Assembly (NCBI GenBank): GCA_947626595.1
Contig: CANQST010000004.1
Span: 1 to 56,788 of the forward strand
Reading direction: 5' to 3'
DNA from: an uncultured Bacilli bacterium
GTDB taxonomy: Bacteria > Bacillota_I > Bacilli_A > RF39 > UBA660
DNA length: 56,788 nucleotides
Under the pieces are notes generated by a model, which was not told the DNA's origin, searched no databases, and saw nothing but the letters and a program-made list of their open reading frames with translations. Every line of letters begins with the position of its first letter. The first letter of the stretch is position 1. The position numbers and the translations under genes were made by a program. Positions 13,601-53,431 of the stretch are shown one piece after another.

Positions 13601-13858
13601 ATGAATAATACTTATCAAGAGGAAGCTACTGTAAAAAGCACTGGTATTGTTAGAGATGTTGTTAAATTAAATTATGGTTCTACAGTAGTAATTATTGAAG
13701 ATACTATTAACAATTTTACTTTAAAAGATGTTATTAATTTTAAGGGTACTCTACTAAAAGTAGGAGATAGTGTTAATATCATTTATAAAGAGAATGGTAG
13801 TAGAATTGAATATGCGATAGAGCCAGTAAAAGTAGATACAATGTATAGAAATAAGTAG
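13601..13858 (+). CDS. Hypothetical small protein (operon gene 3 of 5)
   Basis: 85-aa ORF with RBS aaagggggattatagt before the ATG. Looks beta-rich by composition. Confidence 0.45.
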   Translation: MNNTYQEEATVKSTGIVRDVVKLNYGSTVVIIEDTINNFTLKDVINFKGTLLKVGDSVNIIYKENGSRIEYAIEPVKVDTMYRNK

Positions 13859-13893
13859 TTTGTAGCTACTTTTCTTTTGAAAAAGGTGATTAG

Positions 13894-14847: not shown

Positions 14848-16648
14848 ATTGATTGCGAAAGTAGAAGAAGAGATTGTTTCTTTAGAAAAGACGAAAAAAA
14901 TAGATAATTCTTTATTAGAGTGTTTTACTAAATTTAGAGCTAAATATCAAGGTATTAATATGAGTGATTTTGATACTATTAATTTATATGAAGTAGGAGT
15001 TTGTTATTTCTTAATGAAAAGAAATGATGTTACTTTAGAAGAAGTGTCTACTTTATTAATGCCAATAGGCGAGTTAGTTAAAATTGATTTTGTTGATATA
15101 GGTGAATTATTTGACGATATTAATAAGATTATTCATTTTAAAGAAGAAAGATTACTAGAAATAATGATTACTGATAATATGTCACTTAAAAAGAAGACGA
15201 AAGAGTTATTTGTTCGTAATAAGGGAATTAATCCTTATGTTGAAGAAGCTTTGCGGGGAATAGAAAAGATTATTGAAGAAAACTATTTAGATAGGAACAG
15301 TGTTTTAGAATTTGCTAACTTGATGAAAAAATATCCTTTTGAGATATGGGATATTAAAAATATTTGTGGTAATGTTAAGTTGATATCTACTTTTAATGAT
15401 TTAGTAAGTAAAAGTGCTTATGAAGACGATAAAGAAGAAGAGGACCGTATTAGAGCTAAAGTAATGAATAATGCTAATTATGTAAATAATCAGTTAGATG
15501 CTATATTTAGGTATACTGATAAATTAAGGAAAAAAGAAAGTGCTAGAATTGCGAAAGTTGATAAGAAGGAACTTCCTTTAAAAGAGTTTCTTAATGATTT
15601 TTTAAGTGATGAAAAAGAGATTACTAATTATCAAAGTATGATAGAAAAAATACCGGAATATTTAAGATTAGATGCTTTAAAGTTAATGTATTTACATAAT
15701 GAAGAAGTTTATAATGATATTGATAAGAGATACAATGATTTATCTAATAATAAGAGATTAAAATATCAAAGTCTTTTAAGTAATTATGATATAAAATTAT
15801 CTTCTTTATCGCTTTTACAAATACCTTATGATAAATTAGATAGGTCTTTACAATTACTTAGAAAGTTTGGTATTACTAATACTACTATGCCTTATATATT
15901 AGAAAATACTACGGTAGAGATATTAGAAGAGATAAATCTTTATTTAGAAAGAGGTATTATAAATAAAAAGTTTATTAAAAATAATTATTTAATTTTATTA
16001 CCTGGAGAAGAGTATAATAATCTATCTAATAATATTAAACTATTAGAAGGAGAAAATATTAATCCTAGTACTTTTAATGCTTCTAGTAAAGTACTACTTA
16101 CAGATAATAAGCTATTTATAGATAATATAAATACTTTAAAAGAATATAACTTATTAAATAGTATGAAGACTACTGGTAATTATAATTTCTTAGGTAAGGC
16201 TAATTTAGTTACAATAATTGATAAGTTACTAGAGTTAGGTATGGAAAAAATACTAGAAGAAAATATAGGACTTTTAAATAATAAAAATCTTGATAGATTA
16301 TATATTTTGAAACTTTTAGATATAGAAGTTAGTTCTTATGAAGAGTTAGTTGCATACTTAAATCTTAAAAATTTCTATGTAGATGATGCAGATATATTTA
16401 ATTATGTTAGTAAAAGTAATGTTTCTTTAGATAGTGAAGCAAGATTAGTAAGTTTAGATGTTTTTCCTAAAACAAGTAGAACTATTAATATTAATGGAGT
16501 TATATTTTCCAAGAATAAGGTAGAAAGAAATCTAAAATCTACTAGCTTGAGAGATACGAAAGAAGCTTTATTTAAAGATATTATTTTATCAGAAGAAGAA
16601 GTTGAATTAGTAGATAAAGCTTTAAAAGAAAAGATCTATGTTAAATAG
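14834..16648 (+). CDS. Hypothetical 604-aa protein (operon gene 5 of 5)
   Basis: Overlaps the upstream gene by 14 nt. The C-terminal half has repeated ~30-40-aa leucine-rich helical units (LRKFGITNTTMPYILENTT..., IKLLEGENINPSTF..., IDKLLELGMEKILEENIGLL...). Confidence 0.5.
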   Translation: MTKSELIAKVEEEIVSLEKTKKIDNSLLECFTKFRAKYQGINMSDFDTINLYEVGVCYFLMKRNDVTLEEVSTLLMPIGELVKIDFVDIGELFDDINKIIHFKEERLLEIMITDNMSLKKKTKELFVRNKGINPYVEEALRGIEKIIEENYLDRNSVLEFANLMKKYPFEIWDIKNICGNVKLISTFNDLVSKSAYEDDKEEEDRIRAKVMNNANYVNNQLDAIFRYTDKLRKKESARIAKVDKKELPLKEFLNDFLSDEKEITNYQSMIEKIPEYLRLDALKLMYLHNEEVYNDIDKRYNDLSNNKRLKYQSLLSNYDIKLSSLSLLQIPYDKLDRSLQLLRKFGITNTTMPYILENTTVEILEEINLYLERGIINKKFIKNNYLILLPGEEYNNLSNNIKLLEGENINPSTFNASSKVLLTDNKLFIDNINTLKEYNLLNSMKTTGNYNFLGKANLVTIIDKLLELGMEKILEENIGLLNNKNLDRLYILKLLDIEVSSYEELVAYLNLKNFYVDDADIFNYVSKSNVSLDSEARLVSLDVFPKTSRTININGVIFSKNKVERNLKSTSLRDTKEALFKDIILSEEEVELVDKALKEKIYVK

Positions 16649-18342: not shown

Positions 18343-18418
18343 GCCGATTTAGCTCAGTTGGTAGAGCAACTCATTCGTAATGAGTAGGTCGAAGGTTCAA
18401 GTCCTTTAATCGGCACCA
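18343..18418 (+). tRNA. tRNA-Thr (anticodon CGT), CCA encoded
   Basis: Folds as a cloverleaf. Acceptor GCCGATT/AATCGGC, D arm GCTC/GAGC, anticodon stem ACTCA/TGAGT with loop TTCGTAA, T arm with TTCAAGT loop, 3' ACCA. Confidence 0.9.
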
Positions 18419-22648: not shown

Positions 22649-24124
22649 ATGTTATTTAAAAAGAAAAGTAAAAGTAATATGCCTGTTCAAGATAATGAAA
22701 TAACTACTAGTTCTACTTTATTAGATACTGCTCCTGTTACTAATAATGTTAGTGTTAATAATAGTAATGTAGGAAATAATTCTGTTAATGCTAATGGTTC
22801 AAAACCTTTAGTTAATATGACTAATTCAAATAATTTACAAAGTACTGATAATCAAGATAGTGATTTAATTAATAGTATGACTTCTAGTGCTAATTTAAAC
22901 AAAAAAGTAGATCGTCCTATTAAAAGATTTCATTATATAATTATTAATACTATGGGTAAGAAGGAACAAGGAAATTTTGATGCTGAGTCTGCAGATGATG
23001 TTAGAAATTTCTTGTTATCTCAAGAGTATCAAGTTTTAGAAGTAAAAGAAAGATCTAAGTATGATATTGATTTAGGTGGAAATGGACGTATAAAGACTTC
23101 TGATTTAGCTTTTTGTTTGACACAGTTATCTACTTATATTAAGTCTGGTATTCCACTAGCTGATTCTGTTAAGATACTTGCTAAACAAACAAGTAAGTCT
23201 AGTATGAAGAAAAGCTTTAATGAACTTGTTTATGAGTTATTAAGAGGTGAAAGCTTATCTTCAGCTATGGAGAAACAGAATAATACTTATCCTAAGTTAC
23301 TAATTAATATGATAAAAACGGCTGAAATGACTGGTGATTTACCTACTATTTTGGACGATATGGCTGATTATTATACGGCTATGGATCAGACTAGAAAACA
23401 AATGAAAAGTGCTATGACATATCCATTGGTTGTTTTAACGATTGCTTTTGCTGTATTGATATTTATGCTTACTTACTTAGTTCCACAGTTTGCAACGATG
23501 TTTGAAGCTAATAATGCTGAACTTCCTGCTTTAACATTAACTATCTTGGCGATAAGTGATTTTATTAAGGCATATTGGTATATATTACTTATATGTATAT
23601 TAGTAGTTACAGTGACTTTTGTTTATACATTTAAAAAAGTACAGAAGTTTAGGCTGATGGTTCAAACGATGCTCATGCATATTCCTGTAGTTAAGAATGT
23701 TATTATATATAATGAAGTTGCGAACTTTACAAAGACATTTGCTTCTTTAATAAATCATGGTGTTTTTATTACTGATAGTATGGAGATTTTATCTAAAATT
23801 ACTAATAATGAAGTATATAAAGGTATTATTGATAAATGCTTAACTAATTTAGCTAAGGGGGATTCTATTTCTACAGCTTTTAAGGGTGAGTGGGCTGTTC
23901 CTATTGTTGCTTATGAAATGATAGTTACAGGTGAGACGACTGGACAACTTGGTACTATGATGGAAAAAGTTGCGGCACATTTTCAAATGTTACATAAAAA
24001 TATTATAGATCAAATGAAGAGTTTGGTAGAGCCACTTTTAATATGTTTCTTAGCAGTAGTTGTTGGTATTATTCTTATGTCAATAATTCAACCAATGTTT
24101 GCTATATATGAACAAGTTCAATAA
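22649..24124 (+). CDS. pilC: Type II secretion/type IV pilus platform protein (GspF/PilC family) with an N/S/T-rich N-terminal extension
   Basis: Two GspF repeats (LAFCLTQLSTYIKSGIPLADSVKILA..., FTKTFASLINHGVFITDSMEILS...) and three TM segments. The first ~95 residues are low-complexity. Confidence 0.85.
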   Translation: MLFKKKSKSNMPVQDNEITTSSTLLDTAPVTNNVSVNNSNVGNNSVNANGSKPLVNMTNSNNLQSTDNQDSDLINSMTSSANLNKKVDRPIKRFHYIIINTMGKKEQGNFDAESADDVRNFLLSQEYQVLEVKERSKYDIDLGGNGRIKTSDLAFCLTQLSTYIKSGIPLADSVKILAKQTSKSSMKKSFNELVYELLRGESLSSAMEKQNNTYPKLLINMIKTAEMTGDLPTILDDMADYYTAMDQTRKQMKSAMTYPLVVLTIAFAVLIFMLTYLVPQFATMFEANNAELPALTLTILAISDFIKAYWYILLICILVVTVTFVYTFKKVQKFRLMVQTMLMHIPVVKNVIIYNEVANFTKTFASLINHGVFITDSMEILSKITNNEVYKGIIDKCLTNLAKGDSISTAFKGEWAVPIVAYEMIVTGETTGQLGTMMEKVAAHFQMLHKNIIDQMKSLVEPLLICFLAVVVGIILMSIIQPMFAIYEQVQ

Positions 24125-24135
24125 GGAGGGTAATT

Positions 24136-24900
24136 ATGATGATTTTATACTTAATTATCTTCTTTCTTTTTGGAACATGTTTTGGTTCTTTTTTTACGGT
24201 AATTGGATTAAGACTTCCAAAAAATATTTCTTTCTTAAAAGGAAAATCACACTGTGATAAGTGTAATCATGATTTAGGACTTATTGATATGGTACCAGTA
24301 TTATCATTTATCTTTCTAAAAGGAAAGTGTCGTTATTGCCATGAAAAAATAAGCTCTTTATCTACTTATATGGAATTATTTACGGGAATACTTTTTGCTT
24401 TAGCTTACTATTCTTTTGGGTTTTCTTATTCTTTATTAATAGCTTTAGGTATTATAAGTATGCTTATTATTGTAACTGTTAGTGATATGAATTACTTAAT
24501 TATACCAGATCAGGTTCTTGTCTTTTTTAGTATTTATTTTATTGCTATTAAGATGCTTGATGGAGGAATAAAAGAGGCAGTTTTATGTGTTTTATCAGGT
24601 ATTTTCTTATTTATAATAATGTATGTTATTATGCTAATAGGAAGCAAGATTTTTAAAAGAGAGGCTCTTGGTGGGGGAGACATTAAAATGATGTTTGTCT
24701 TTGGATTAGTTCTTCCCCCTTTACTAGGCGTTATATCGATATTTTTAGGTAGTTGTTTAGCTTTGCCTGTATCTTTATATATTTTGACCAGAAAGAAGGA
24801 AAGAATTGTTCCTTTTGGGCCTTTTCTTTTATTAGCGCTTACTCTTTTGTATTTTACTAAGATAACGCCTGATATTATACTTAGTATATTAAGAAGTTAG
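24136..24900 (+). CDS. pilD: Prepilin peptidase (A24 family)
   Basis: N-terminal Cys motif CDKCNH...CRYC, polytopic membrane body and the catalytic-type motif GGGDIKMM. Confidence 0.85.
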   Translation: MMILYLIIFFLFGTCFGSFFTVIGLRLPKNISFLKGKSHCDKCNHDLGLIDMVPVLSFIFLKGKCRYCHEKISSLSTYMELFTGILFALAYYSFGFSYSLLIALGIISMLIIVTVSDMNYLIIPDQVLVFFSIYFIAIKMLDGGIKEAVLCVLSGIFLFIIMYVIMLIGSKIFKREALGGGDIKMMFVFGLVLPPLLGVISIFLGSCLALPVSLYILTRKKERIVPFGPFLLLALTLLYFTKITPDIILSILRS

Positions 24901-25227: not shown

Positions 25228-25281
25228 TTGACTTTTATGTGCATTACGTATATATTTATATTAGTATACGTAATACGTATA
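25228..25281. promoter_or_regulatory. Promoter and TACGTA-type palindromic operator (cassette 2)
   Basis: TTGACT (25228-25233), a 17-nt spacer and TATATT. There is a perfect 17-bp palindrome TATACGTAATACGTATA (25265-25281) and a TACGTATA half-site at 25245-25252 overlapping the -10. Confidence 0.55.
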
Positions 25282-25299
25282 TATAATAGAGGTGATATC

Positions 25300-26028
25300 A
25301 TGAAGAATAGTAAGATAATAGTAGGGGTAGTAATTGGAATAGTTATATCAATTACTTTATCTTTTTGTCTAGCAGAAACTTTAATAGAAAGTAAAAATGT
25401 TTCTTATGTAGATAACAGTGCAGTAGGAGCAATTAATGTACAAAATGCCATAGATGGAACTTGTACTAAGTTTAGTAATGAATTACAAAACTTTCTCTTA
25501 AAAGTATACCCCGTAGGAAGTATTTATATATCAACAACTTTAAAAACTCCAAGTGAAGTACAAAATAGTTTTGGTGGTACTTGGGTTTCATATGGAGTAG
25601 GAAAAACATTATTAAGTAGTACAACAAGTGAACAAACTGGAGGTTCAAACACGGTAACTCTGACAACAGCTAATCTACCAGCACATACTCATAATTATGA
25701 TAAAGTAAATGCTAATACAGGTTCACATGTTTTAACTATAGCGGAGATGCCAGCACATCCAGGACATATATATGAAGCTGGAGGAAGTGGTGGCTGGTAT
25801 GTACCAGCAGCATATCAAACAACTACTTCATTTTCTAATAGAAGATGGATAGTTCATAGAGCTAACGAGCTTTATCCTGATAGCACTTCTTATGGTAATA
25901 ATGAAGGCCACACTCATTCAATCTCAACTACCTCAACCGCAACAAGTTCGGCAGGTTCTACTAATCCTACCGCTATTAATGTCCAAAATGAATATATAAC
26001 TGTCTATATGTACAAAAGAACTAATTAG
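25300..26028 (+). CDS. Signal/TM-anchored tail-fibre-like HxH-motif protein, paralogue 2
   Basis: The ATG at 25300 follows agaggtgatatc. It has the same leader, YPVGSIYIS...FGGTW, LPAHTHNY, MPAHPGH, EGHTHSI and shared C-terminus as the 4449 and 33263 ORFs. The 24-codon upstream extension in the ORF track runs through the promoter. Confidence 0.8.
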   Translation: MKNSKIIVGVVIGIVISITLSFCLAETLIESKNVSYVDNSAVGAINVQNAIDGTCTKFSNELQNFLLKVYPVGSIYISTTLKTPSEVQNSFGGTWVSYGVGKTLLSSTTSEQTGGSNTVTLTTANLPAHTHNYDKVNANTGSHVLTIAEMPAHPGHIYEAGGSGGWYVPAAYQTTTSFSNRRWIVHRANELYPDSTSYGNNEGHTHSISTTSTATSSAGSTNPTAINVQNEYITVYMYKRTN

Positions 26029-31208: not shown

Positions 31209-32096
31209 TTACTTACTACTACGTGGATGGTATTTTTTATAATCTTCTATTACTTTTTTATCACTTACTTCTGTATATATCTTAGTTGTTGAGATATCAA
31301 CATGTCCTAACATTTCTTGGATACTTCTAAGATCAGCTCCCCTATTTATTAAATGGGTTGCGAAAGAGTGTCTCAATGTATGTGGTGATACTTCAGGATT
31401 TAAGCCTTTTTCTTTTAAAATTTTTTTTAAATTTTTAAAAAAGCCTTGTCTAGTCATAGCGTTACCATGATTATTTAAGAATAGTTTATTACAGCTTTTT
31501 CCTTTTAAAAGACTTGCCCTTACTTCTAAATATTTATTTATATATATAATAGCATATTCTCCTATAGGAACTACTCTTTCTTTATCTCCTTTACCTAAAA
31601 TATGGACAAGAGCATTTGTCATATCAATATCATTTAAAGTTAAATTAATAACTTCACTTACTCTTAAACCACATCCATACATCAATTCTAACATAGCTTT
31701 ATTACGATAGTCAAATGGTGTTTCTAATTTAATATCAAGTAGTTTATCTACTTCTTCAATACTTAAAGTTTTTGGTAGAGTTTTTCGTAATTTTGGTCTA
31801 TCAATAAATTCAGTAACATCAGCTTCAACTTTTTGTACTTTTAATAAATATTTATGAAAATTCTTAATAACTGTTAAATTATGGGCTACGGTAGTAGTTT
31901 TCTCTTTATTTCTTAATTTTATAAAGTCTATGACGTTTTCAGTACTAATTTCTTCTACAGTAAATATATTTTTTTTATTTAAATAATTTTTATATACGTT
32001 TAAATCATTAGTATAAGCTTCTTTAGTTTTATCTGATAAGCCTTTTTCAAAGACACAGTAGTTTATAAAATCTTCAATAGCGTTATTTATATTCAT
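31209..32096 (-). CDS. xerD: Site-specific tyrosine recombinase XerD/XerC type
   Basis: GLRVSEVINL, HTLRHSFATHLI and LGHVDISTTKIYTEV catalytic motifs. Adjacent to deoB, as ripX-drm are in B. subtilis. Confidence 0.8.
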   Translation of the reverse strand: MNINNAIEDFINYCVFEKGLSDKTKEAYTNDLNVYKNYLNKKNIFTVEEISTENVIDFIKLRNKEKTTTVAHNLTVIKNFHKYLLKVQKVEADVTEFIDRPKLRKTLPKTLSIEEVDKLLDIKLETPFDYRNKAMLELMYGCGLRVSEVINLTLNDIDMTNALVHILGKGDKERVVPIGEYAIIYINKYLEVRASLLKGKSCNKLFLNNHGNAMTRQGFFKNLKKILKEKGLNPEVSPHTLRHSFATHLINRGADLRSIQEMLGHVDISTTKIYTEVSDKKVIEDYKKYHPRSSK

Positions 32097-33232: not shown

Positions 33233-33263
33233 CGAGTTATGCTTTAATAACTCGCCAATTTTT
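33233..33263. terminator. Bidirectional terminator hairpin
   Basis: cgagttat-gcttta-ataactcg followed by ccaatttttt. It lies between convergent genes. Confidence 0.55.
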
Positions 33264-34018
33264 TAAGCTTTTCTTCGATACATGAAAACGGTTACATATG
33301 GATCTTGAACATTGATAGCTGTAGGATTAGTAGAACCTGCCGAACTTGTTGCGGTTGAGGTAGTTGAGATTGGGTGGGTGTGTCCTCCCCCACCTCCATA
33401 ATTTGTGCTGGCTGGGTATAGCTCATTTCCCTCATATACTACCCATCCCCTTTTTGCATAATATTGTGGTTCTGCTTGTTTGGCAATTGTTTTTGATAAA
33501 TACAAATAATTTTCTTCTCCTCCATATCTTTCTACATGTCCTGGATGTGATGGCATCTCTGCTATCGTTAAGGTATGGGAACCGGTATTAGCATTTGCTT
33601 TATCATAATTGTGAGTGTGAGCTGGTAGATTAGCTGTTGTTAGTGTTACGGTGTTTGCTCCTCCTGTTGTACCTGATTTGGATGTTGTTCCTCTTAATAC
33701 TTTATCCGTTCCATATGTCTCCCAAGTACCACCAAACTTATTTTGAACTTGTTCTACGGTAGATAATTCAGTTGATATATAAATGCTACCTACTGGATAT
33801 ATCTCATTTATTATTTGCTTCTTTAAATTAATTAAATCATTACTAAACTTAGTACAAGTTCCATCTATGGCATTTTGTACATTAGTCGCTCCTAATTTAG
33901 AATTATCTACATAAGAAACATTTTTACTTTCTATTAAAGTTTCTGCTAGACAAAAAGATAAAGTAATTGATATAACTATTCCAATTACTACCCCTACTAT
34001 TATCTTACTATTCTTCAT
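33263..34018 (-). CDS. Signal/TM-anchored tail-fibre-like HxH-motif protein, paralogue 3
   Basis: The first 40 residues are identical to paralogue 2. It has YPVGSIYIS...FGGTWE, LPAHTHNY, MPSHPGH, GGHTHPI and the shared C-terminus STNPTAINVQDPYVTVFMYRR. Confidence 0.8.
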   Translation of the reverse strand: MKNSKIIVGVVIGIVISITLSFCLAETLIESKNVSYVDNSKLGATNVQNAIDGTCTKFSNDLINLKKQIINEIYPVGSIYISTELSTVEQVQNKFGGTWETYGTDKVLRGTTSKSGTTGGANTVTLTTANLPAHTHNYDKANANTGSHTLTIAEMPSHPGHVERYGGEENYLYLSKTIAKQAEPQYYAKRGWVVYEGNELYPASTNYGGGGGHTHPISTTSTATSSAGSTNPTAINVQDPYVTVFMYRRKA

Positions 34019-35766: not shown

Positions 35767-36369
35767 TTAGAAATATATTAATTTTATTACTTTAGGTACG
35801 ATAAATACTTCTAAAATACTTGATAATAAGCTTATTCCTAAAGAAATTGTAAGTAATTTTAGATATCTTTTTACGATAAGCTTTCTATTATAATCTTTTT
35901 TTCTAAAGAAATAATTAAATAGCATAATAGAAAAGCTTAGTGAATAATACGCTAAAAAGAATGTTACTATTAAGTTTATTATCATGGGAATAGCATATAT
36001 AACTCCTAGTAATAGACCTTTTAATCCCATATTATAAATTATACTAGTAAAGGTAAAGGTAGATAAGAAACATTTAAAAATAAATATTAAAATAATAAAG
36101 ATAACTCCTATTAGTGATATTCCTAATAACCATATTAAAATATTAGTTAGAATATTACTATTTATGGTCTTTATTAAGGTAGTAGTATATTTAATATTAT
36201 TATTTTTAATAGCAATATAATAGTTATTTATATTATCTTTAATTATAGTTTTATTTTCATTATTTATAATAGTAATATAGAATACACCTAATATTAAAAA
36301 AATACTTCCTAGTATTAATAGAAAAGTAAGTAGTTTATTATTTTTTAATTTTTTAATCATAGTCTTCAC
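35767..36369 (-). CDS. spoIIM: Stage II sporulation protein M-like membrane protein
   Basis: The TM pattern and core ILTNILIWLLGISLIGVIFIILIFIFKCFLSTFTF...GLLLGVIYAIPMIINL resemble SpoIIM. The gene lies near xerD-deoB, as in B. subtilis. Confidence 0.65.
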   Translation of the reverse strand: MKTMIKKLKNNKLLTFLLILGSIFLILGVFYITIINNENKTIIKDNINNYYIAIKNNNIKYTTTLIKTINSNILTNILIWLLGISLIGVIFIILIFIFKCFLSTFTFTSIIYNMGLKGLLLGVIYAIPMIINLIVTFFLAYYSLSFSIMLFNYFFRKKDYNRKLIVKRYLKLLTISLGISLLSSILEVFIVPKVIKLIYF

Positions 36370-42636: not shown

Positions 42637-42713
42637 TGGTAGTCTGTACGGGGTTCGAACCCGTGAATGCCACCTTGAGAGGGTGGTGTGTTAAGCCACT
42701 TCACCAACAGACC
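42637..42713 (-). tRNA. tRNA-Glu (anticodon CTC), CCA encoded
   Basis: The reverse complement GGTCTGTTGGTGAAGTGGCTTAACACACCACCCTCTCAAGGTGGCATTCACGGGTTCGAACCCCGTACAGACTACCA folds as a cloverleaf. The anticodon stem is CCACC/GGTGG with loop CTCTCAA. Confidence 0.85.
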
Positions 42714-42780: not shown

Positions 42781-45700
42781 TTACTTTTTCATGAAGACTT
42801 TACTGTCTTCTTTAGCAGTAATTATATTAATAAATTTCTTTAGAGATAATAACTCTTCTTTAGTAAGATTAATAATATTTTTACTAAAAAGATTATCTAG
42901 TATTTCTTTAGTACTAGGCTCTAGTAAAGATAAAGTAGCATTACTAGAAGTTAGATAGATATTTCTAATATTAGTTAGTTCTTCATTAGTAAAGGCTGTT
43001 TTTTCTTTTTCTTTCATAATCTTATTAGATATAGCAATACTTATCTTTTTATATTTAACTTTCTCTTCAGGAGTTAATCTATATTTAGCAATATCGTCTA
43101 AGTTCTTACCATTTCTTTTAAAGAAAAGTTCTTGATCTTCTTTAGAAAAAGTTTCAACTATTCTTAGTAAAGTATCTTTATCAACAGCAAATTTTAAAGT
43201 AGTAGCTTTTCTATTTAGGATAGAAGATATCTTAATAGATACTTTATGATAAGCTTGTTTTTCTTCTTTAGAAAGGCTACCTATAATATTTAAAGATCTA
43301 TCATACTTTTTATAGAATAAATTTCTTTCTTCTTCATTTAAATAGTTATCTACTATTTCAAGTACTTTCTCATTAGGAGCTTTAAATCTAGCTTTAGTAT
43401 CTTTTTTCTTCTTTTGAAGATTTAATTTTATAGAGATTTTTCTAGTTATTTTCGAATATAGTTCTTTTTCAAAAGAATTTAATGGCTCGCTACCTACTCT
43501 ATCTAAAGATTTACCTAGCTTTTTATAAATAATTTGTTGTTCTTGTTCATCTAGGGAAGAGATTATTTCTAATAAAGTAGCATTATCTGTCATAAATTTA
43601 GTTTTATTTTGAGGAGAAATATTTTTAATTTTAGAAATATATTCATTACTTATATAACCATTTTTATTTAGAAAGGCTAAGGCTTCATTATATAGAGAAA
43701 TTATTTCTTGTAAATGATTAGCAGAAGTATTTAAACTAATAGTTTTATTTTTTCTAATATTTGGAATATTAAACTTATCTATTAATATATTTTTATCTTT
43801 TCTATTAAAAAGCATGGCAACTTTCTTTTTATTATTATCAATATGTTTAGAAGATAATGATTTTTGAGATATATCATTTACTTTAAGAATTAATTCTTCA
43901 TTTAAAGAGTTAATATTATTAATAATACTTTCAAATAAAGGTAGTATTTCTTGATAAAGTCTTTTCTTTTCTTCTTCTTGTAATGATTTTAATATATAAG
44001 CATTTTTAGTTATATTGTAATGGGCTCTGATAAGAGCTTTATCAGTATTATTAAAGTATCTTAGAGCTTTATTAATAGTTGGTCTATCAAAGTCTAAAGT
44101 AGTTTTAGTATCATTTATCTTTTTAATTATTTCTTCATAGAAAGTTTCTTCTTCTTTAGTTAATCTATAAGGATAAATCTTAGTTAAGTCATTATTAAAT
44201 CTTTTATAGAAAATAATTTGTTCATTGATAGGAAGTTTTTTTACTTTATAAAGAAGTTCTTCATTATTAGAAAAAGGAGCCTTTTCTCTTGTTTCTTTTC
44301 TTATTGATAATATTATTTCTTCTTTTAGATGACTTTTTTCTTTAAGAGAAGATAGGGCTTCTAGAAATAATTTAATAATTTTTTGATAATGTCTTTTATC
44401 TTCTTCATTTATATTTTCTAGATTAATATAATTATTATAGTAATCATACTTAGTATTAATAAAGATAGCATCTTCTTTAGTAAAGAATGGTAATATTTCT
44501 TTCTTTAGATTTTTATATTTTTCTTTAGATAAATCTTTTTTAGATAAGTCATTTACTTTTACTTGTAACTCATTACTAAGAGTAGAATTATCTTTTAAAT
44601 ATTTAATAATCTTTTTACATAATAAGCTAAGTTCTTCTAGTCTTTTTACTTCTTCTTCAGTTAAGTTATTTAGACGAGTAATTTTTCTTTTAACAGCAAA
44701 CTTTTCTTTTAGAAGTTCTTTATCTTCATCATTAAAATAATCTAAGGCTTTATCTAAGATAGTTCTATTTTCATAGATTACTTCAATTAAAGGATGTTTT
44801 TCTTTTAATCTTTTTTCTCTTTGAATAGACATACTTATTTTTCTTGCGAGTTTTATATATATTTCTTGTTCTTCTTCAGATAATGGTTTATTAATATAAT
44901 TACCATTAAGATTTAAATTGTAATGACGATAGAATATTTTTTGTTCTTTTTTAGTAAAGGAAGAAATTATTTCTTCTAGATGTTCTTTAGGAATATTATA
45001 TGTCTTTTTTTGTTTAAGAGATAGATTTTTTATTTTACTTAAAGTAAGAGGAGATATTTCCTTCTTTTCTTGTTTTTCTTTTAAAGCAAGTTTTAATATA
45101 GGAATAAGCTTTTCTTTTAGTAATAAGTAATCTTCTTGTTGAAGAGGAGTATTATTATACTTTCGATACTTATAAAAATTCTTTAATATTCTAGTATTTT
45201 TACTATCAAAGTATTCTAAGACTTCTTCTACTTCTTTTCTTGCTGCTGGGGGTGTATGAAAAGAAGTTATTTTTTCATTTAGATTATTAATACGATCAAG
45301 TAATCTTTTATTTATAGAATATGTTATATTATGAAGTTCTGTTTTATTTAGAAAATCTTCTCCAAAACGCATCTTTATTAGATTAATATCAGATACTCTT
45401 ACATAGTTTAACATAAACTTTAACTCTTCTTTAGAAGAAGCTGTTGTTAAGTCTTGGAAAGAGGCTTTAGTAATATCTAAATTATAATTATTAGTATTTT
45501 CTATATTAAAAGCATAAGTTATTAGTTTTTGATAAGTATTATTACTAGATACATGAAGTAGTTCAGTTAAAGAATAAATATTTTCATTTCTCTTAGGAAA
45601 ATTGCTAAGTATATACTCTTGTTCTTGTTGGGTTAAATAAGTTAAGGCTTTAGTTAGACTTTCTTTAGAAATAATATTATTTTCTTTTCTTGTTTTTACT

Positions 45701-47523
45701 TTTCTTTTAGAATTAATACTTACATTTTTTCTTAGTTTTGTTAGTATTACTTTATAAAAGTAGTATTCTACAGGAGGAGAAAGGACTTCTCCATCATTAG
45801 AATAGCCATTTTTATATTTAGTTTTTAAGATATTTAATTCAAAATCTTCTAGGTTTTCTAAGTACTTAGTTAATTCATTATTATCTATATTTAGTAAAGT
45901 AAGTAAAGATGTTTTTGTATTTACAATAATTTCTGGATGCATAAGGGCTTTACAAAAGTTTCTTAGTTCGTCTACTATTACAGTAAATTCTTTATTATTA
46001 GGAGGTACTATTTTATTAGAATAATTAGGTCCATATAAGCTTTGAAGATACTTTTGTTGGTCTTCTTGTAAGTAAGTTATGGCTTTAAGAGCATATTCTT
46101 TTTTGTAGCATGACTTTAAGCAGGTAAAAAGAGTTACTTTCTTTTGTATTTTATTATTACCATTAGGATTATCTAAGTAGTTAGTAGTATTTTTAATATC
46201 TTTATCATTATTTAATTTATTAAGAGCTTTTTCTTCTATTTGTCTAACTCTTTCTCTAGTAATATTTAGAGACTTTCCTACTTCTTCTAAGCTTTTCTGA
46301 GGTCCTTCAAGACCAAATCTTTCTTTAATAATATATAGTTCTCTTTTATCTAATCTATCTAAGCTTTTATATAGTATTTTTCTTAAGTCTTTTCTAATAT
46401 AGTCTTCTTCAATAGCGACTTTACTATCAGGAATAAAGTCTTGTAGTTCACTTTCACTATCGTCTTCACTTACTAAGGCATTATAACTAATTATTTCTTT
46501 GGCGTTTGTTAAGAGATTGGAAACTTCTTCTTTAGATAATTTTGTATATCTCTCAATCTCTTCATTAGTAGGATTTCTTCCTAATGTTAGAGATAATTCA
46601 GTTGTTGCTTTTTTTATTTTATTTAATTTATCATTAAAATGAACAGGTAGTCTAATCATGCGTCCATTATTAGCGATGGCTCTAGTTATAGCTTGTCTAA
46701 TCCACCAAGTAGCGTAAGTGGAAAATTTTTGGTTCCTTGTAATATCAAATCTATCAATAGCGGTAATTAGACCAATAATACCTTCTTGAATTAAGTCTTC
46801 TAGGGAAAGTCCACGACCAATATATTTCCTAGCAATACTAACAACTAGCTTTTGATTATGTAAAATAACATATTCTTTAGCTTTTTCGTCATTATTTTTA
46901 ATTCTAGTAAAGTAGTCTTTTTCTTCTTCTCTTGTAAGTATTCCTTTAGGGATATTTTGAAGCATATCTTTAATTATATCAGTTGAAAAATAATTATCAT
47001 TAGTATTACTACTATTACTACTTTCTTCAGGAAGAACTTCTTCTTCTATTTCAATATCATTTTCTAAGCAAAAAGGCTCTAGTAAAATGTTTAGATTACT
47101 TTCTAATAAGAGATGCAGTTTCTTAGTATTTAGTTTATCATTAGTAAAAAGTAGTTTATTAATACTTTCTTTTACATATTCATTTTCTATTAATATTAAG
47201 CATTCTTCATAAGATAAGTCTGGTATTAGATAAGTAATATTATTTATAAAATCAGTAAGGTCATTATTCTTAGAGAAGAAGTAATTAGTATAATTAATTA
47301 AAACATTTTTATTCTTTATTTCTTTTTTTAATATTTTTAGATATTCATTAGTAAGATATTTTTCTAATTTCTTAGCATCAAATGTCTTTTCTTTTTCTAA
47401 ATAAGTATTTATGGCATTATCAAATAATTTATCTTCTTCAACACTTAAAAAAGAAAAGTCTTTTCTTACTTTTTCTTTTATATCATTTATTATTTGTAAA
47501 GTTTTCCTTCTATCTAAGTCCAT
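42781..47523 (-). CDS. Giant RpoD-like sigma-70 family protein with a ~1,100-aa C-terminal repeat array
   Basis: Sigma regions 2-4: HNQKLVVSIARKY, LIQEGIIGLITAIDRF, FSTYATWWIRQAITRAI, IRLPVH, LEEVGKSLNITRERVRQIEEKALNKL. The ATG at 47523 follows ggtggtatt, and the ORF track gives an alternative ATG at 47550. The 4.7-kb ORF is uninterrupted. Confidence 0.8.
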   Translation of the reverse strand: MDLDRRKTLQIINDIKEKVRKDFSFLSVEEDKLFDNAINTYLEKEKTFDAKKLEKYLTNEYLKILKKEIKNKNVLINYTNYFFSKNNDLTDFINNITYLIPDLSYEECLILIENEYVKESINKLLFTNDKLNTKKLHLLLESNLNILLEPFCLENDIEIEEEVLPEESSNSSNTNDNYFSTDIIKDMLQNIPKGILTREEEKDYFTRIKNNDEKAKEYVILHNQKLVVSIARKYIGRGLSLEDLIQEGIIGLITAIDRFDITRNQKFSTYATWWIRQAITRAIANNGRMIRLPVHFNDKLNKIKKATTELSLTLGRNPTNEEIERYTKLSKEEVSNLLTNAKEIISYNALVSEDDSESELQDFIPDSKVAIEEDYIRKDLRKILYKSLDRLDKRELYIIKERFGLEGPQKSLEEVGKSLNITRERVRQIEEKALNKLNNDKDIKNTTNYLDNPNGNNKIQKKVTLFTCLKSCYKKEYALKAITYLQEDQQKYLQSLYGPNYSNKIVPPNNKEFTVIVDELRNFCKALMHPEIIVNTKTSLLTLLNIDNNELTKYLENLEDFELNILKTKYKNGYSNDGEVLSPPVEYYFYKVILTKLRKNVSINSKRKVKTRKENNIISKESLTKALTYLTQQEQEYILSNFPKRNENIYSLTELLHVSSNNTYQKLITYAFNIENTNNYNLDITKASFQDLTTASSKEELKFMLNYVRVSDINLIKMRFGEDFLNKTELHNITYSINKRLLDRINNLNEKITSFHTPPAARKEVEEVLEYFDSKNTRILKNFYKYRKYNNTPLQQEDYLLLKEKLIPILKLALKEKQEKKEISPLTLSKIKNLSLKQKKTYNIPKEHLEEIISSFTKKEQKIFYRHYNLNLNGNYINKPLSEEEQEIYIKLARKISMSIQREKRLKEKHPLIEVIYENRTILDKALDYFNDEDKELLKEKFAVKRKITRLNNLTEEEVKRLEELSLLCKKIIKYLKDNSTLSNELQVKVNDLSKKDLSKEKYKNLKKEILPFFTKEDAIFINTKYDYYNNYINLENINEEDKRHYQKIIKLFLEALSSLKEKSHLKEEIILSIRKETREKAPFSNNEELLYKVKKLPINEQIIFYKRFNNDLTKIYPYRLTKEEETFYEEIIKKINDTKTTLDFDRPTINKALRYFNNTDKALIRAHYNITKNAYILKSLQEEEKKRLYQEILPLFESIINNINSLNEELILKVNDISQKSLSSKHIDNNKKKVAMLFNRKDKNILIDKFNIPNIRKNKTISLNTSANHLQEIISLYNEALAFLNKNGYISNEYISKIKNISPQNKTKFMTDNATLLEIISSLDEQEQQIIYKKLGKSLDRVGSEPLNSFEKELYSKITRKISIKLNLQKKKKDTKARFKAPNEKVLEIVDNYLNEEERNLFYKKYDRSLNIIGSLSKEEKQAYHKVSIKISSILNRKATTLKFAVDKDTLLRIVETFSKEDQELFFKRNGKNLDDIAKYRLTPEEKVKYKKISIAISNKIMKEKEKTAFTNEELTNIRNIYLTSSNATLSLLEPSTKEILDNLFSKNIINLTKEELLSLKKFINIITAKEDSKVFMKK

Positions 47524-47571
47524 AATACCACCAAACCTTATATCTATCATACTATATCGAAAGATAAATTT

Positions 47572-49443
47572 CTAGTTTTTTTTCGTATATACTTTATCTT
47601 CTTTAATGATATTTAATAATTTTTTAACTATTTCTCTAGTAAAATAGTATTCTATTGGTAATTCTAGTTCTTTAGAAGTAGATGTTTCAAGGTTATTATT
47701 ATATTTCTTATAAATAATATTTCTATCAGTTTGAGGAAGTTTTTCTATTAATTCAAGTAATCTATCTTTAGATACTCCTAAAACGATGCATAGACTAAGA
47801 TTTGTTATGCGGACATTTTCTGGTTTAGCATAGGCTCTTAAGAAGACTTTTAATTTATGAATAATATGGTCATGTACTGGGTCAACTACGATAGGAATTT
47901 TCTTTTCATAGAAATTACCATATAAACTTTTTAAGTATTTTACCTCAAGAGGATCTAGAAGGTCAATTGCTTTCATTAAGTGCTTTTTACCAATATCAAA
48001 GTAAGAAATTAGTAATACTTCTTCTTGTTTATTTAAGTCGATATCATAGTCTAAGTAATTAACTAATTTACGAGCATCAGAATTATTTCTTAGTTTAATT
48101 AGACCTTTCTTTTCTATTTGACGAATACGTTCTCTTGTGACATTGTACATTGAACCTACTTCTTCTAATGTCTTAGGGATACCATCAATTAAACCAAAAC
48201 GATGTAATATTACTTGTCTTTCTTTTTCGTTTAAGTTACTTTCTAGAATAGTGCGAATTCTTTTTTGCAAATCTACTTTTAAGTAATCTTTTTCTAAATC
48301 TACTTCGTCAGGTATTAAATCAATCATTTCTGTTTCTTCTTTACTATCGTCACTACTAACATCAATATTATAACTTATAGTATTAGCAGATAGTTTTATT
48401 ATTTCTTCTACTTTTTCTACGGGAACATCCAAAGATGCCGCTATTTCTTCTTTAGTAGGTTCTCTTTTTAAATCGTTTGCGAGTTTATTTTTAATACGAT
48501 TATATTTATTTACTTCTTCATTGAAATATACTGGTAATCTGATAGTTCTACCATATTGGGCAACGGCTCTTGATAGGACTTGTCTAATCCACCAACTAGC
48601 ATAGGTTGAGAAACGATATCCTTTACTTATATCAAAATAATCAACAGCTTTCATTAGACCAAATGAACCTTCTTGAATTAAGTCATTTAAAGATATACCA
48701 CTTGATACATATTTACTAGCAATACTCGCAACTAGACGCATATTATGTTCAACAATATAATTTTTTAATTCACTATGACCCATGGAAATTTCTCTTAAGA
48801 GTCTTTCTTGTTCTTCATTAGATAAAGTAGCAGGTAAATTATACATGTAGTCTCTAACAGCATCTCCAGTTAAGACGATTTCTTCACTATCATTAGTTTT
48901 TTCTTGTATTTCTTCTTCTACTATGATATTATTCTTCTCACAATATAAATCTATTACGGGAAAGGCTGATGTTTCTAGTAAATATTCAACTTTTTTTAGA
49001 TTTAATTTACCTCTACTTGTTAGTAGTCTTTTTATTAAGCTTTCTAGATTAGAATTATCTAATAAATAAGTCCACTCATCAAAAGAAATATCTGGAAAGA
49101 TATAACTTATATCATTACAATAGCTAATTAATAGTTCTTCTAGGTTAGTCATTTTACTAAGATAATTATTAGTAAAATCAAGTAAATATCTATTAACATT
49201 ATCATTATTTATTCTTTTTTTAACTTCTTTTTTTAAAAGATAAATATAGTATCTATCAATTTCTTTTACTAAAGTATTAATATCAGTAATCTTTTTTTGT
49301 AGTAGGATATCTAGACTTTTTTCGAAAAGATGTTTTCTTTCTTCAGTAGTTAGATTTAAGAAAGAATAATTTTCATATACTGATTTTTCTTTTACTTCTA
49401 ATTTTTTTAAGAAATTATCTTTTTCTTTTAATGATAAATTCAT
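47572..49443 (-). CDS. RpoD-like sigma-70 family protein (about 623 aa) with an N-terminal domain and a ~160-aa C-terminal extension
   Basis: HNMRLVASIASKY, LIQEGSFGLMKAVDYF, FSTYASWWIRQVLSRAV, IRLPVY, LEEVGSMYNVTRERIRQIEKKGLIKL. The ATG at 49443 follows gggagttgttggt. It is colinear with the first ~615 residues of the downstream giant paralogue. Confidence 0.85.
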   Translation of the reverse strand: MNLSLKEKDNFLKKLEVKEKSVYENYSFLNLTTEERKHLFEKSLDILLQKKITDINTLVKEIDRYYIYLLKKEVKKRINNDNVNRYLLDFTNNYLSKMTNLEELLISYCNDISYIFPDISFDEWTYLLDNSNLESLIKRLLTSRGKLNLKKVEYLLETSAFPVIDLYCEKNNIIVEEEIQEKTNDSEEIVLTGDAVRDYMYNLPATLSNEEQERLLREISMGHSELKNYIVEHNMRLVASIASKYVSSGISLNDLIQEGSFGLMKAVDYFDISKGYRFSTYASWWIRQVLSRAVAQYGRTIRLPVYFNEEVNKYNRIKNKLANDLKREPTKEEIAASLDVPVEKVEEIIKLSANTISYNIDVSSDDSKEETEMIDLIPDEVDLEKDYLKVDLQKRIRTILESNLNEKERQVILHRFGLIDGIPKTLEEVGSMYNVTRERIRQIEKKGLIKLRNNSDARKLVNYLDYDIDLNKQEEVLLISYFDIGKKHLMKAIDLLDPLEVKYLKSLYGNFYEKKIPIVVDPVHDHIIHKLKVFLRAYAKPENVRITNLSLCIVLGVSKDRLLELIEKLPQTDRNIIYKKYNNNLETSTSKELELPIEYYFTREIVKKLLNIIKEDKVYTKKN

Positions 49444-49509
49444 ACCAACAACTCCCATTAACTTTTTTCGTGTTTAATATTATAATACATTTTAGAAGAA
49501 AAAAAAAGA

Positions 49510-50891: not shown

Positions 50892-51983
50892 TTAATCTAG
50901 TTTAGCGCCACAGTTACTACAGAACTTACCACCATTAGTTGGTGAGCCACAATTAGAACAGAACTTACCAGTTGAAGAAGTTTCTTTATCATTATTATTA
51001 CTATTAACTGCTCCCATTAAGTTAGCCCCAACACTATTAGCCATATTCATACCCATAAAGCCCATCATTGAGCCATTTTCATTGCTAGAAGCATTTTTTA
51101 AAGCTTCAGCAGTCGCATTAGCCATTAAGCCACTTTGTAGTTTACTATCGGCAAAGATAGTAGCATCGTCGATTTTAGATACTCTTTTCATGGACTCGTC
51201 AGTTAGATTAATATCCATAATGGCAACATCACTTATTTTAATACCATATTTACTTACTAAGTCACTATCTAAAAGCTTATTCATGGCTTCAGAAATTTCT
51301 GTTGAGTGCATGCCAACATCACCGAAAGGTACTTTGTCTTTACGCATTACTTCGGTAATAGCTTGCGTTAGTTTTTCAACGAATTTAGCTTTAAATTGGT
51401 CTTCTAGAAGATCAGAAAAAGTTATAGTATCTTTAGGATTGGCACCAATTACAGCTTGAACTAGTAAAGCAGGGTCGTCTACTTTAATAGCGTACTCTCC
51501 AAAGAAAGTTACTTCTAACATACCATATTTATCGTCAGTAATTTTCTTAGATTGAGGTGAACCAAACTTATTGCCAGTTAAAGCAAGTAAATTAACATAG
51601 TAAACTCTCTGGTCTTTGGCAGCTGCACCTCCGTAAGTGATACGACTACCTATTTTTTTGATACTATCGATTAGACCTTTACCAAAGCCTCCGGTAAAGA
51701 TACTTGGTTCACTACTGTTATCATAAGTATAAGTACCAGCTTCAGCTGAAAATTCAACTATTTTACCATTTTCAATAAGCATCATGGCACATCCTTCTGG
51801 TACTAGAATAGTACTACCATTAGTAATAACTCCTTCGGTTGGATTTTTGTTGGCTTTGCCATGATTAACTATTCCTCTTTGGATAAGGACACCACCTGAC
51901 ATATCACTACATGTTACATACTCCTTAAATTGGTCTCCTATTACTGAAGAAATAGAAGTAGTTGCGGCTTTTATTAAACCCAT
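50892..51983 (-). CDS. SPFH-domain protein (YdjI / virion-core-protein-like) with a C-terminal double zinc ribbon
   Basis: MGLIKAATTSISSVIGDQFKEY N-terminus and an SPFH-like body. The C-terminal FCSNCGSPTNGGKFCSNCGAKL gives two CxxC ribbons. Confidence 0.7.
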   Translation of the reverse strand: MGLIKAATTSISSVIGDQFKEYVTCSDMSGGVLIQRGIVNHGKANKNPTEGVITNGSTILVPEGCAMMLIENGKIVEFSAEAGTYTYDNSSEPSIFTGGFGKGLIDSIKKIGSRITYGGAAAKDQRVYYVNLLALTGNKFGSPQSKKITDDKYGMLEVTFFGEYAIKVDDPALLVQAVIGANPKDTITFSDLLEDQFKAKFVEKLTQAITEVMRKDKVPFGDVGMHSTEISEAMNKLLDSDLVSKYGIKISDVAIMDINLTDESMKRVSKIDDATIFADSKLQSGLMANATAEALKNASSNENGSMMGFMGMNMANSVGANLMGAVNSNNNDKETSSTGKFCSNCGSPTNGGKFCSNCGAKLD

Positions 51984-52003: not shown

Positions 52004-52516
52004 TTATTTAACTACTTTATATTCTATTAAGACATAGTCATAGTTTTCTAAGTCAAATGTTGCGCCACAGTATTCACATTTACCACTATTGTTGACGTTA
52101 ATACTAGCGCCACATCCAGGACATCTTTTAACTAGACCATCTTCTTTAGTTATATCTTTTTTTACAAAAACTAAATCATTTTTTCTTTCTATTCTTGTTG
52201 TATCACTACCTCTTATGAGGTTAGCATTTTTATCAATAACATAATCAAAGTATTTAGATGTAAGTATCATTTCTATTTTATCATAATTTCCTTCGCTATG
52301 ACTTATTATATGGATATCTTTGACATTGATTTCGTCATATATTTGGGTATTTTCCTTTTCTTTTAAATCATTTACATAGATCGATACTTGGTCATATAAA
52401 TCTTTACCTAAAAAGTGTTTGATATCTTCTAGATCTTTTTTCATAATAGCATTATGTAATTTAACAAAAATATTTCCAGCTTTTGATTTAAGTAATTCTT
52501 CTTTTTCTAAGTCCAT
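52004..52516 (-). CDS. Tim44-like-domain protein with a C-terminal zinc ribbon
   Basis: 170 aa. A domain pattern similar to the C-terminal half of the upstream 299-aa protein, followed by CPGCGASINVNNSGKCEYCG. Confidence 0.55.
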   Translation of the reverse strand: MDLEKEELLKSKAGNIFVKLHNAIMKKDLEDIKHFLGKDLYDQVSIYVNDLKEKENTQIYDEINVKDIHIISHSEGNYDKIEMILTSKYFDYVIDKNANLIRGSDTTRIERKNDLVFVKKDITKEDGLVKRCPGCGASINVNNSGKCEYCGATFDLENYDYVLIEYKVVK

Positions 52517-52531
52517 AATGATATTATCCTC

Positions 52532-53431
52532 CTATTCATAATACTGTCCTACACAAGTTTTTTTGCTTAAGACATAACTTCCAGATAATTTTACTAAAGT
52601 ACTATCACAATAAGGACAAATTGCGGAAGAGTTTATGTCTACAGGAGCTCCACAGTTAGGACATTTTTCTTGTTTGTTGTGGTTAGTTGCGGATTTAACG
52701 AAAGTTAATTCATATTTAACGCAGGCTTTTCTATTCTTATTACCTCTTACTACTTCATTATTTTCTTCTTTTACAACATAATCATAACATTTAACAAATA
52801 AGTATACCTTTACAATAATAGCGTCTTTTTCTTTTCTTATATCATATACTTTAGCGTCATTATAAGTAAAATCACTCATAATATTCTTTTGTTTTTTAAC
52901 TTTTAGTGTTTCAAGTTGACTATTATACATATTAAATAACTCATCAGTAGTATTTTCTCTTATAGTGTCATAGTCAAAGTCCATCCAAGCAATTTGAATT
53001 TTCTTGTATATTTCAAAGACTTCTTTCTTAAATTCTTCTAGTTGAAGAGTATTATCTATTTCATTTATCTTTTCTTGTGGTAAGTCATTATAGATATTGT
53101 TGGTTGTAGAATTTATGCTTGAAGAGAGCTTTTGGAATTTTTTAGCGGTTCCGATTATGGTGAAGAAGATAACGATAAAGATAACCATACCAAAGAAGAA
53201 AACAAAGAAAACGCCATCGTCACTAGTAATGATTACGCCACCTCCACTACTTCCTCTATCATAGTCGTCATAATCCCAACTAGAACTTCCCCAATCACTT
53301 GAAGAACTAGAAGACCAGTCACTGCCGCCACTATCGTAGTCAAAATCCCAGCCAGAGTCTGCTTTAACAACGTAACTAAAAGCAAAAATAGTTGTGATAA
53401 TTGTCAAAAATAATATTAATTTCTTTTTCAT
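52532..53431 (-). CDS. Membrane protein with an acidic exodomain, a TM helix, a Tim44-like domain and a zinc ribbon
   Basis: Signal peptide, DSGWDFDYDSGGSDWSSSSSSDWGSSSWDYDDYD segment, TM (VFFVFFFGMVIFIVIFFTII), cytoplasmic domain and CPNCGAPVDINSSAICPYC. Confidence 0.55.
   Translation of the reverse strand: MKKKLILFLTIITTIFAFSYVVKADSGWDFDYDSGGSDWSSSSSSDWGSSSWDYDDYDRGSSGGGVIITSDDGVFFVFFFGMVIFIVIFFTIIGTAKKFQKLSSSINSTTNNIYNDLPQEKINEIDNTLQLEEFKKEVFEIYKKIQIAWMDFDYDTIRENTTDELFNMYNSQLETLKVKKQKNIMSDFTYNDAKVYDIRKEKDAIIVKVYLFVKCYDYVVKEENNEVVRGNKNRKACVKYELTFVKSATNHNKQEKCPNCGAPVDINSSAICPYCDSTLVKLSGSYVLSKKTCVGQYYE

Follow-up and report, generated by a model that had tools for sequence, protein, structure and literature searches.

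To our knowledge, characterised sigma factors end at or just past region 4. The C-terminal extensions described so far are single domains of about 70-400 amino acids (aa) on extracytoplasmic function (ECF) factors; they comprise SnoaL-like, TPR, WD40-like and Cys-rich types as well as fused anti-sigma factors, and in ECF41, ECF42, ECF238 and others they regulate the protein via contacts with sigma-2/sigma-4 or with the linker (PMC8999054). Here we describe a much longer extension, found in an uncultured Bacilli bacterium on contig CANQST010000004.1 of assembly GCA_947626595.1, whose 56,788 nucleotides (nt) are called the window below. On its (-) strand is the gene of a large sigma factor in which about 1,130 residues follow the sigma C-terminus, and most of these residues form 14 modules derived from region 4. 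As in ECF factors with a C-terminal extension, the appended region is conserved within the group (PMC8999054). However, ECF factors consist of sigma-2 and sigma-4 only, plus a single sensory or regulatory domain, whereas the large sigma factor has a region 3 and its extension is made of repeats of its own region 4. Pfam detected no SnoaL, TPR, Cys-rich, WD40 or fused anti-sigma domain in this tail. The protein is a sigma-70 factor carrying a new family of repeat domains derived from the factor itself, and the structural and evolutionary description that follows, of a sigma factor carrying an array of sigma-4-derived modules, is one in which we have high confidence.

The large sigma factor and its tail

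The open reading frame (ORF) occupies positions 42781-47550 (-) and is uninterrupted, as a preliminary description made from the sequence had stated: 1,589 codons are open from the first ATG, with the stop codon at 42781-42783. Gene callers choose the ATG at 47523 (M10), giving a product of 1,580 aa. Just 5' of that codon a Shine-Dalgarno-like AAGG...GGTGG can be read directly at 47528-47540 (-), and no ribosome-binding site precedes the first ATG at 47550, so that 47523 is likely the true start. The guanine-cytosine (GC) content of the window is about 24%, which makes stops about 9% of random codons; by our arithmetic from this frequency, the probability that the 1,129 codons of the tail stay open by chance is about e^-104. 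The identical 1,580-aa protein is present on six contigs from separate sequencing runs and sources, and Tandem Repeats Finder detected only short AT-rich repeats in the DNA, none with the module period. For these reasons, and because orthologues have a like architecture, the ORF is not an assembly artefact.

The sigma-70 regions 2-4 announced by the preliminary description are all found by Pfam between aa 229 and 446, and the sigma motifs and module starts that it quoted lie at the residues it gave. Sigma70_r2 covers aa 229-297 (nt 46660-46866; E=1.4e-21, 76.5 bits), Sigma70_r3 aa 308-383 (nt 46402-46629; E=6e-15, 55.5 bits), and Sigma70_r4 aa 397-446 (nt 46213-46362; E=1.9e-14, 53.3 bits), all on the (-) strand and against cut-offs of 24-25 bits. 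No other domain reaches its cut-off in a Pfam scan of the whole protein. TIGR02937 scores 112.1 bits against a cut-off of 42.9. In the translation, the RpoD box FSTYATWWIRQAITRAI (also given as YATWWIRQAITRAI) is perfect, and ITRERVRQIE, the motif of region 4.2 that reads the -35 element, is intact. The core as a whole, comprising regions 1.2 to 4, spans aa 185-460 (46171-46998, (-)) and ends in NYLD, the counterpart of the SigA C-terminus (DFLD/DYLE). It is preceded by an N-terminal region of about 175 aa (46999-47523, (-)), common to the paralogue and orthologues described below, that has no match to Pfam Sigma70_r1_1 or r1_2. The protein is therefore a member of the sigma-70 family, of RpoD-like type. 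It shares regions 1.2 to 4, the RpoD box and TRERVRQIE with the primary sigma-70 factors (RpoD/SigA, groups 1-2), but runs 1,129 residues past the point where RpoD ends.

Several features separate it from the housekeeping factor. Its scores for the RpoD equivalog models are below their cut-offs (TIGR02393, 245.7 versus 354; NF006666, 244.8 versus 572; NF004208, 249.4 versus 555). Neither region 1.1 (PF03979) nor region 1.2 (PF00140) is matched in it at E<=1, and the region-1.2-like stretch DIIKDMLQNIP..LTREEE is recognisable by eye only; nearly all of the nearest RpoD matches have PF00140 and most have PF03979. The nearest ordinary relatives of the core are clostridial RpoD proteins, at about 45% identity. 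Primary sigma factors of Firmicutes typically lie in a dnaG-sigA operon. The genes upstream of the large sigma gene are a paralogous sigma gene and murC, with no primase among them. Because of the RpoD scores below cut-off, the missing Pfam regions 1.1 and 1.2 and the absence of an adjoining dnaG, the large sigma factor is classified as a primary-like (group-2-like) alternative sigma factor and not as a canonical housekeeping RpoD.

After NYLD (aa 457-460) begins the tail. Its 14 modules, each about 72 aa long and net basic (+2 to +8), extend over aa 470-1515 (43006-46143, (-)). They were placed by anchoring on a region-4.1-like motif, which starts at aa 494, 567, 639, 719, 781, 865, 939, 1023, 1106, 1166, 1248, 1333, 1404 and 1468. 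The preliminary description had counted at least 14 repeated modules beginning like region 4.1, and hidden Markov models (HMMs) bear this out: when each module is scored against a model of the other 13, it reaches 6.8-39.9 bits, as compared with a 95th percentile of 4.4 and a maximum of 10.6 bits for composition-matched shuffles. Nine modules exceed 19 bits and five are marginal, at 6.8-10.6 bits. Modules of two proteins outside the training set also match the module HMM. The modules thus represent genuine repeats, with only about 20% identity between pairs, and BLASTP of the protein and of the tail against themselves gave no off-diagonal matches, since at this divergence pairwise BLAST is blind to them. 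A higher order is also present: modules 7, 8 and 9 (aa 915-1141; 44128-44808, (-)) are collinear with modules 10, 11 and 12 (aa 1142-1380; 43411-44127, (-)), with a Smith-Waterman score of 251 versus 61 +/- 9 after shuffling, so that they form two copies of a three-module super-repeat. Modules 6, 12, 13 and 14 make up a close subfamily. The tail is rich in lysine (14.6%) and asparagine (10.2%) and has a net charge of +52, against -9 for the sigma part. Lysine or arginine is conserved at consensus columns 64, 66 and 67 and in a KKxK linker, and no hydrophobic or transmembrane segment is seen in the tail (maximum hydropathy 1.2). Past the last module, the C-terminal 74 aa (42784-43005, (-)) contain the region-4.1-like motif LEPSTKEILDNLF. 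They give no significant sigma-4 match, being too diverged for one, and we read them as the counterpart of the C-terminus of the seven-module orthologue P0002.

Likeness of the modules to region 4

Profile comparison links the modules to region 4. With hhalign, a profile of 22 modules aligns to 73 genuine sigma-4 sequences with P=4.3e-5 and a score that none of 400 column shuffles reached, and a profile of 421 family modules aligns over the same 26 columns with P=1.7e-6. The 26 columns correspond to the two region-4.1 helices up to the R[FY]G motif, and the family consensus R[YF]G-E-D-L-D-N-P resembles the RFGLDDG of sigma-4. A profile search of all PDB sequences returned no significant match to the module profile; two of its five best matches are isolated sigma-4 domains, aligned on region 4.1. 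The curated Pfam models behave differently in the window and in less diverged relatives. Searching the window's modules with HMMER against PF04545 and PF08281, a check that the preliminary description had proposed, gave no significant match: only one of the 22 modules, scanned singly, touches Sigma70_r4_2 (E=0.055), and the tail alone has no Sigma70_r4 match even at E<=10. In the relatives P0128, P0133 and P0135, however, Sigma70_r4 or r4_2 is matched at E=1e-10 to 1e-16, with partial matches over the first 20-30 or so model positions being summed (best Sigma70_r4 E=1.9e-16).

AlphaFold2, given the other modules as alignment, models a single module with a predicted local distance difference test (pLDDT) score of 81.7 and a module pair with 86.3, the alignment for the latter having been built from non-overlapping module pairs; the predicted TM-score (pTM) of the pair, 0.59, leaves the inter-module geometry uncertain. 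The modelled module, a three-helix unit predicted with good confidence, consists of a short helix, two helices, a 12-residue loop and one helix of 19-21 residues. When Foldseek compares it with the PDB, sigma-factor chains aligned on region 4 make up, by our count, 40 of the 50 top neighbours (best TM-score 0.57, root-mean-square deviation 2.2 Å); no individual match is significant, as the best E is 0.74 and none is <=0.001. The two-module model against the PDB and the single module against a viral library were both uninformative.

What the modules have kept and lost can be seen by comparison with region 4 itself (PF04545 / PF08281; structures 1tty, 4lk1_F and 6n60_F). They share with it the region-4.1 helices, the R[FY]G loop and the overall order of helices, and sigma-4 domains are their nearest solved folds. 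Unlike region 4, they fail the Pfam models and lack helix 3 of the helix-turn-helix (HTH) as well as conserved -35-contact residues. A relaxed alignment of module to sigma-4 needs helix 3 to be deleted, the columns equivalent to the -35-reading residues are variable, and the models contain no HTH, one long helix following the loop in its place. The preliminary description had put a helix of the type L-[ST]-x-EE... where region 4.2 would be; this assignment finds no support, as that segment is modelled as a single long helix, its alignment needs helix 3 to be deleted and the positions for -35 contact are not conserved. Its broader proposal of a region-4-derived tail is thus supported for region 4.1, by hhalign, the fold matches and the relatives' Pfam matches, and not for region 4.2 and the HTH. 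What remains of region 4 in each module is the pair of region-4.1 helices with the "R[YF]G-acidic" loop; a long K/R-rich helix has taken the place of the HTH. The modules arose through serial and block duplication of sigma region 4, and are best described as sigma-4 derivatives with a collapsed HTH.

Relatives and genomic surroundings

Immediately upstream lies a paralogous sigma factor of 628 aa (47572-49458, (-)), 38% identical over about 600 aa, in whose tail (aa 471-628, 158 aa; 47575-48048, (-)) the module HMM finds modules 1-2 only. The two-module paralogue would be nearer the ancestral state. Counted from the end of its gene, the large ORF's first ATG is 21 nt away and the ATG at 47523 is 48 nt away, and because the gap is only 21 nt the two genes are probably co-transcribed. 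The gene order on the (-) strand is murC, small sigma, large sigma, tRNA-Glu and two ATP-binding cassette (ABC) exporters. The tRNA-Glu(CTC) at 42637-42713 (-) is on the same strand, 68 nt past the stop codon of the large sigma gene and ahead of the exporter genes. For both sigma paralogues the best NCBIfam/PADLOC model is MzaA of the MZA anti-phage system (NF041931 / PDLC02203), which is also a long member of the sigma family. The match is confined to the generic sigma domain, however (model positions 434-718 of 726; 250.7 versus a cut-off of 800), and the extra region of MzaA is N-terminal and unmatched. An identity with MzaA was rejected on the score and on the absence of the partner genes mzaB-E from the flanking genes scanned.

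When the tail was used in a word-indexed search for homologues, a single relative came up, P0002 (1,040 aa, seven modules), from a rabbit-gut "uncultured Bacilli" metagenome-assembled genome (MAG) whose locus is syntenic with the window, and a scan of the genome collection with the first two modules returned the P0002 contig only. An exhaustive HMMER profile search gave 207 cluster representatives at E<=1e-3, 77 of them at E<=1e-10. The closest orthologue, P0130 (1,556 aa), is 52% identical in the sigma part and 35% identical in the tail, which is collinear over about 1,000 residues; its locus reads murC, small sigma, large sigma, ABC, ABC, with SpoIIM further downstream. As the P0130 tail is collinear and its locus syntenic, the 14-module tail is old and has been maintained. 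Other fused orthologues are P0002, P0139, P0170 and P0142. Two P0002 strains compared with each other give a ratio of non-synonymous to synonymous polymorphism (pN/pS) of 0.27 for the tail and 0.14 for the sigma part, on just 11 substitutions (binomial P=0.038). In the relative P0002/P0003 (locus L003, 7697-9940) a TetR gene is inserted ahead of the ABC exporters. The gene called upstream of its large sigma encodes 362 aa with Pfam r3 and a weak r4 only, and we take it for a truncated small-sigma paralogue; an IS200-type Y1 transposase gene just upstream of it suggests disruption by insertion. Two "long" sigma matches of the database, P0007 and P0013, are ordinary RpoD proteins with an internal assembly duplication and were set aside as irrelevant.

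Four architectures occur among the 151 sequences analysed locally. In 42 a full sigma factor precedes the modules, in 16 a short sigma factor (regions 2 and 4) does so, in five the modules come before the sigma factor, and 88 have modules only, some of these probably being fragments. The module copy number across the family is 2-19, and sigma factors joined to 2-14 modules are among the 207 representatives. Module-only proteins of 1,607, 1,862 and 1,568 aa are encoded directly beside sigma-plus-tail genes in relatives, and one relative occurs both as a 2,081-aa product and as a pair of 447 + 1,620 aa, of which the former is presumably the fused form. In locus L007 (447-4924), a Tad/Flp-type pilus operon (TadE, CpaE-like, T2SSE, two T2SSF) is followed directly on its downstream side by the gene of the 1,607-aa module-only protein and by a sigma-plus-tail gene of 1,090 aa; genes for T2SSF and prepilin peptidase are present in the window as well (22649-24900), about 20 kb from the sigma pair. 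Outside the full sigma core there are 35 extra near-complete sigma-4-like domains, most of them at the extreme C-termini of arrays, and these look like evolutionary intermediates. The family contains more than 400 near-full-length modules, for which Pfam currently has no model. Named members are all annotated as "hypothetical protein" or as "sigma-70 family RNA polymerase sigma factor" and come from MAGs of Bacilli or of an unclassified bacterium, and the window's Tgt is about 81% identical to the Tgt proteins of Candidatus Onthousia species, a group that NCBI assigns to Bacilli incertae sedis. The hosts of the named members are uncultured gut Bacilli related to Candidatus Onthousia. The fusion of a sigma-70-type factor to a long repeat array, put forward in the preliminary description, is supported by a complete sigma core and 14 modules. 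We found no paper on a sigma factor with region-4-derived repeats or on free module arrays, so the architecture does appear undescribed; it is not that of a single gene, however, since it recurs in a lineage-wide family of at least 207 clusters.

The window is chromosomal and contains spoIIGA-sigE, tdk, tgt, murC and a gene for a Xer-like recombinase. The spoIIGA-sigE operon is at 531-1978 (+), with Peptidase_U4 followed by a 229-aa sigma factor, and SpoIIM at 35767-36369 (-). From these genes the organism appears to form endospores, in spite of a GC content of 25% and its placement in Bacilli incertae sedis. Near 30 kb the gene orientation turns from mostly (+) to mostly (-), with a Xer-type tyrosine recombinase (31209-32096) at the switch; this could mark a replication terminus or could reflect no more than strand composition, and the change of GC skew there was discarded as a separate signal, since it simply tracks the coding strand. 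Three paralogues of about 250-265 aa with a phage baseplate Gp10 C-terminal domain (PF21939) are scattered across the region (4449-5243 (+), 25228-26028 (+) and 33263-34018 (-)), and relatives have members of this family in their syntenic loci too, there beside small HTH_3 genes (L003, 5333-6130 and 22302-23033; L009, 94-819). A 1,270-aa MMPL/RND-type transporter (8650-12462), with a divergent TetR-like gene (7926-8477), is followed by four co-directional ORFs of 184, 162, 317 and 604 aa (12521-16648, (+)) that have no Pfam match at E<=1e-5. Just upstream of murC are two adjoining Tim44-like-domain proteins (170 and 299 aa) and a SPFH/Band-7 protein with a C-terminal zinc ribbon (52004-53431 (-) and 50892-51983 (-)). 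A tRNA-Thr(CGT) lies further off (18343-18418, (+)). A promoter and terminator scan gave the same counts as shuffled sequence, with -10/-35-like hexamers no commoner than expected by chance.

Possible roles of the tail

As possible functions, the preliminary description had suggested a scaffold, a decoy or a tether. Solved holoenzyme structures show region 4 seated on the beta-flap, on the upstream side of RNA polymerase. The upstream DNA is where activators and the C-terminal domains of the alpha subunits (alpha-CTDs) work. Since region 4 has this position, the tail would emerge beside the upstream DNA. A model of its action can be proposed from these elements. The sigma part would bind core RNA polymerase and read consensus-like -10 and -35 elements. 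The modules, presumably no longer able to read a -35 hexamer, would form an extended, strongly basic arm (+52) travelling with the polymerase. This arm might touch the AT-rich upstream DNA in a non-specific or weakly specific manner, or else partner proteins, thereby adding affinity, reach or valency, and the module-only proteins encoded beside sigma genes in relatives could do the same job in trans. The conserved lysine or arginine residues, which lie where the last helix ends and within the KKxK linker, fit such an arm. Taken as a whole, a sigma factor whose sigma-4-derived tail serves as a polymerase-tethered basic arm is the explanation towards which we lean. The specific mechanism of DNA contact, deduced from charge and position, is put forward tentatively.

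Several observations weigh against this account. The evidence for DNA binding by the tail consists of its charge and position, and the lysine richness is partly compositional in a 25%-GC genome. The window's own modules match no Pfam sigma-4 model and no single Foldseek neighbour is significant; AlphaFold may have leaned to sigma-4 owing to the region-4.1-like sequence, and its module pair has the modest pTM given above. The pN/pS comparison counts few substitutions, and the dnaG-sigA context was judged from the window, a part of the genome.

Of the rival explanations, the one that fares best is that the modules, fused or free, are decoys: by mimicking region 4 they would soak up proteins that bind it, such as phage anti-sigma factors of the AsiA or ORF67 type, host anti-sigma factors or activators, and so protect or tune transcription. 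The region-4.1 helices, which the modules keep, contribute to the surface that the beta-flap and AsiA-type proteins bind, and the PDB neighbours of the module include sigma-4 complexes with phage G1 ORF67. The variable copy number, the clustering of paralogues in one locus and the free module proteins are also typical of conflict systems. However, modules that differ this much from one another and only weakly resemble a true region 4 would be poor mimics, no defence genes are nearby (the PADLOC match to MzaA concerns the generic sigma domain only), and the collinearity of the whole array with that of P0130, at 35% identity, is contrary to the rapid turnover of an arms race. We therefore consider decoys unlikely. 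An autoinhibitory extension in the ECF manner, keeping the factor inactive until a signal or proteolysis frees it, has a precedent in ECF41, ECF42 and ECF238, whose extensions regulate through sigma-2/sigma-4 or the linker (PMC8999054), and it is plausible that sigma-4-like modules would compete with the factor's own region 4. Yet the regulatory extensions known so far each consist of one domain of about 70-400 residues and not of 14 repeats, arrays that are free or N-terminal to the sigma factor are hard to fit with intramolecular inhibition, and neither a sensor domain nor a transmembrane segment nor a protease gene is seen, all of which makes autoinhibition even less probable.

Equally improbable in our view is that the modules are an unrelated helical repeat, the "LxxxExxILxxRYG" likeness to region 4.1 being a convergence within a generic three-helix repeat. 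Such a reading would account for the lack of Pfam sigma-4 matches in the window's tail, for a PDB profile search without significant match, for Foldseek E values that are all above 0.7 and for a confident alignment limited to 26 columns. It does not sit well with an hhalign score above all 400 shuffles, with an independent sigma-core HMM that repeatedly matches the same columns across the family, or with curated Pfam models reaching 1e-16 in relatives. Moreover, complete sigma-4-like domains end many arrays, sigma factors are 40 of the 50 top fold neighbours, and the repeat almost always occurs either in one protein with a sigma factor or in a gene next to one. Finally, an assembly or annotation fusion, or an unconstrained K/E/N-rich low-complexity tail, which the biased composition, the relative annotated as two ORFs (447 + 1,620 aa) and the assembly duplications behind some database sigma matches might have suggested, is effectively excluded by the identical product of six contigs from independent runs, the lack of a DNA tandem repeat, a 4.7-kb open frame not expected by chance at 24% GC, the fused orthologues, the confident module models and the tail pN/pS of 0.27.

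With a sigma-4-derived tail as the preferred reading, the promoter-binding domain of a primary-like sigma factor has been copied 14 times over, and in relatives as many as 19 times, with loss of the HTH that reads DNA, a result that would surprise a transcription specialist. The module design is conserved across species and has spawned free-standing paralogues. There is some chance, though not a large one, that sigma-4-derived arrays are an unrecognised class of RNA-polymerase-associated proteins in a lineage of uncultured gut Bacilli, either fused to sigma factors in proteins of as many as 2,081 aa or free, with as many as 1,862 aa, and encoded next to them, that act multivalently, as integrated decoys for phage or host proteins targeting sigma-4 or as scaffolds organising several polymerases or long stretches of upstream DNA; if true, this would be a mode of transcription control without characterised precedent. 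The family offers a natural series of two modules, seven modules, 14 modules and free arrays. If the tail does contact DNA or partners, it would represent a new means by which the polymerase gains reach or valency at the promoters of very AT-rich genomes.

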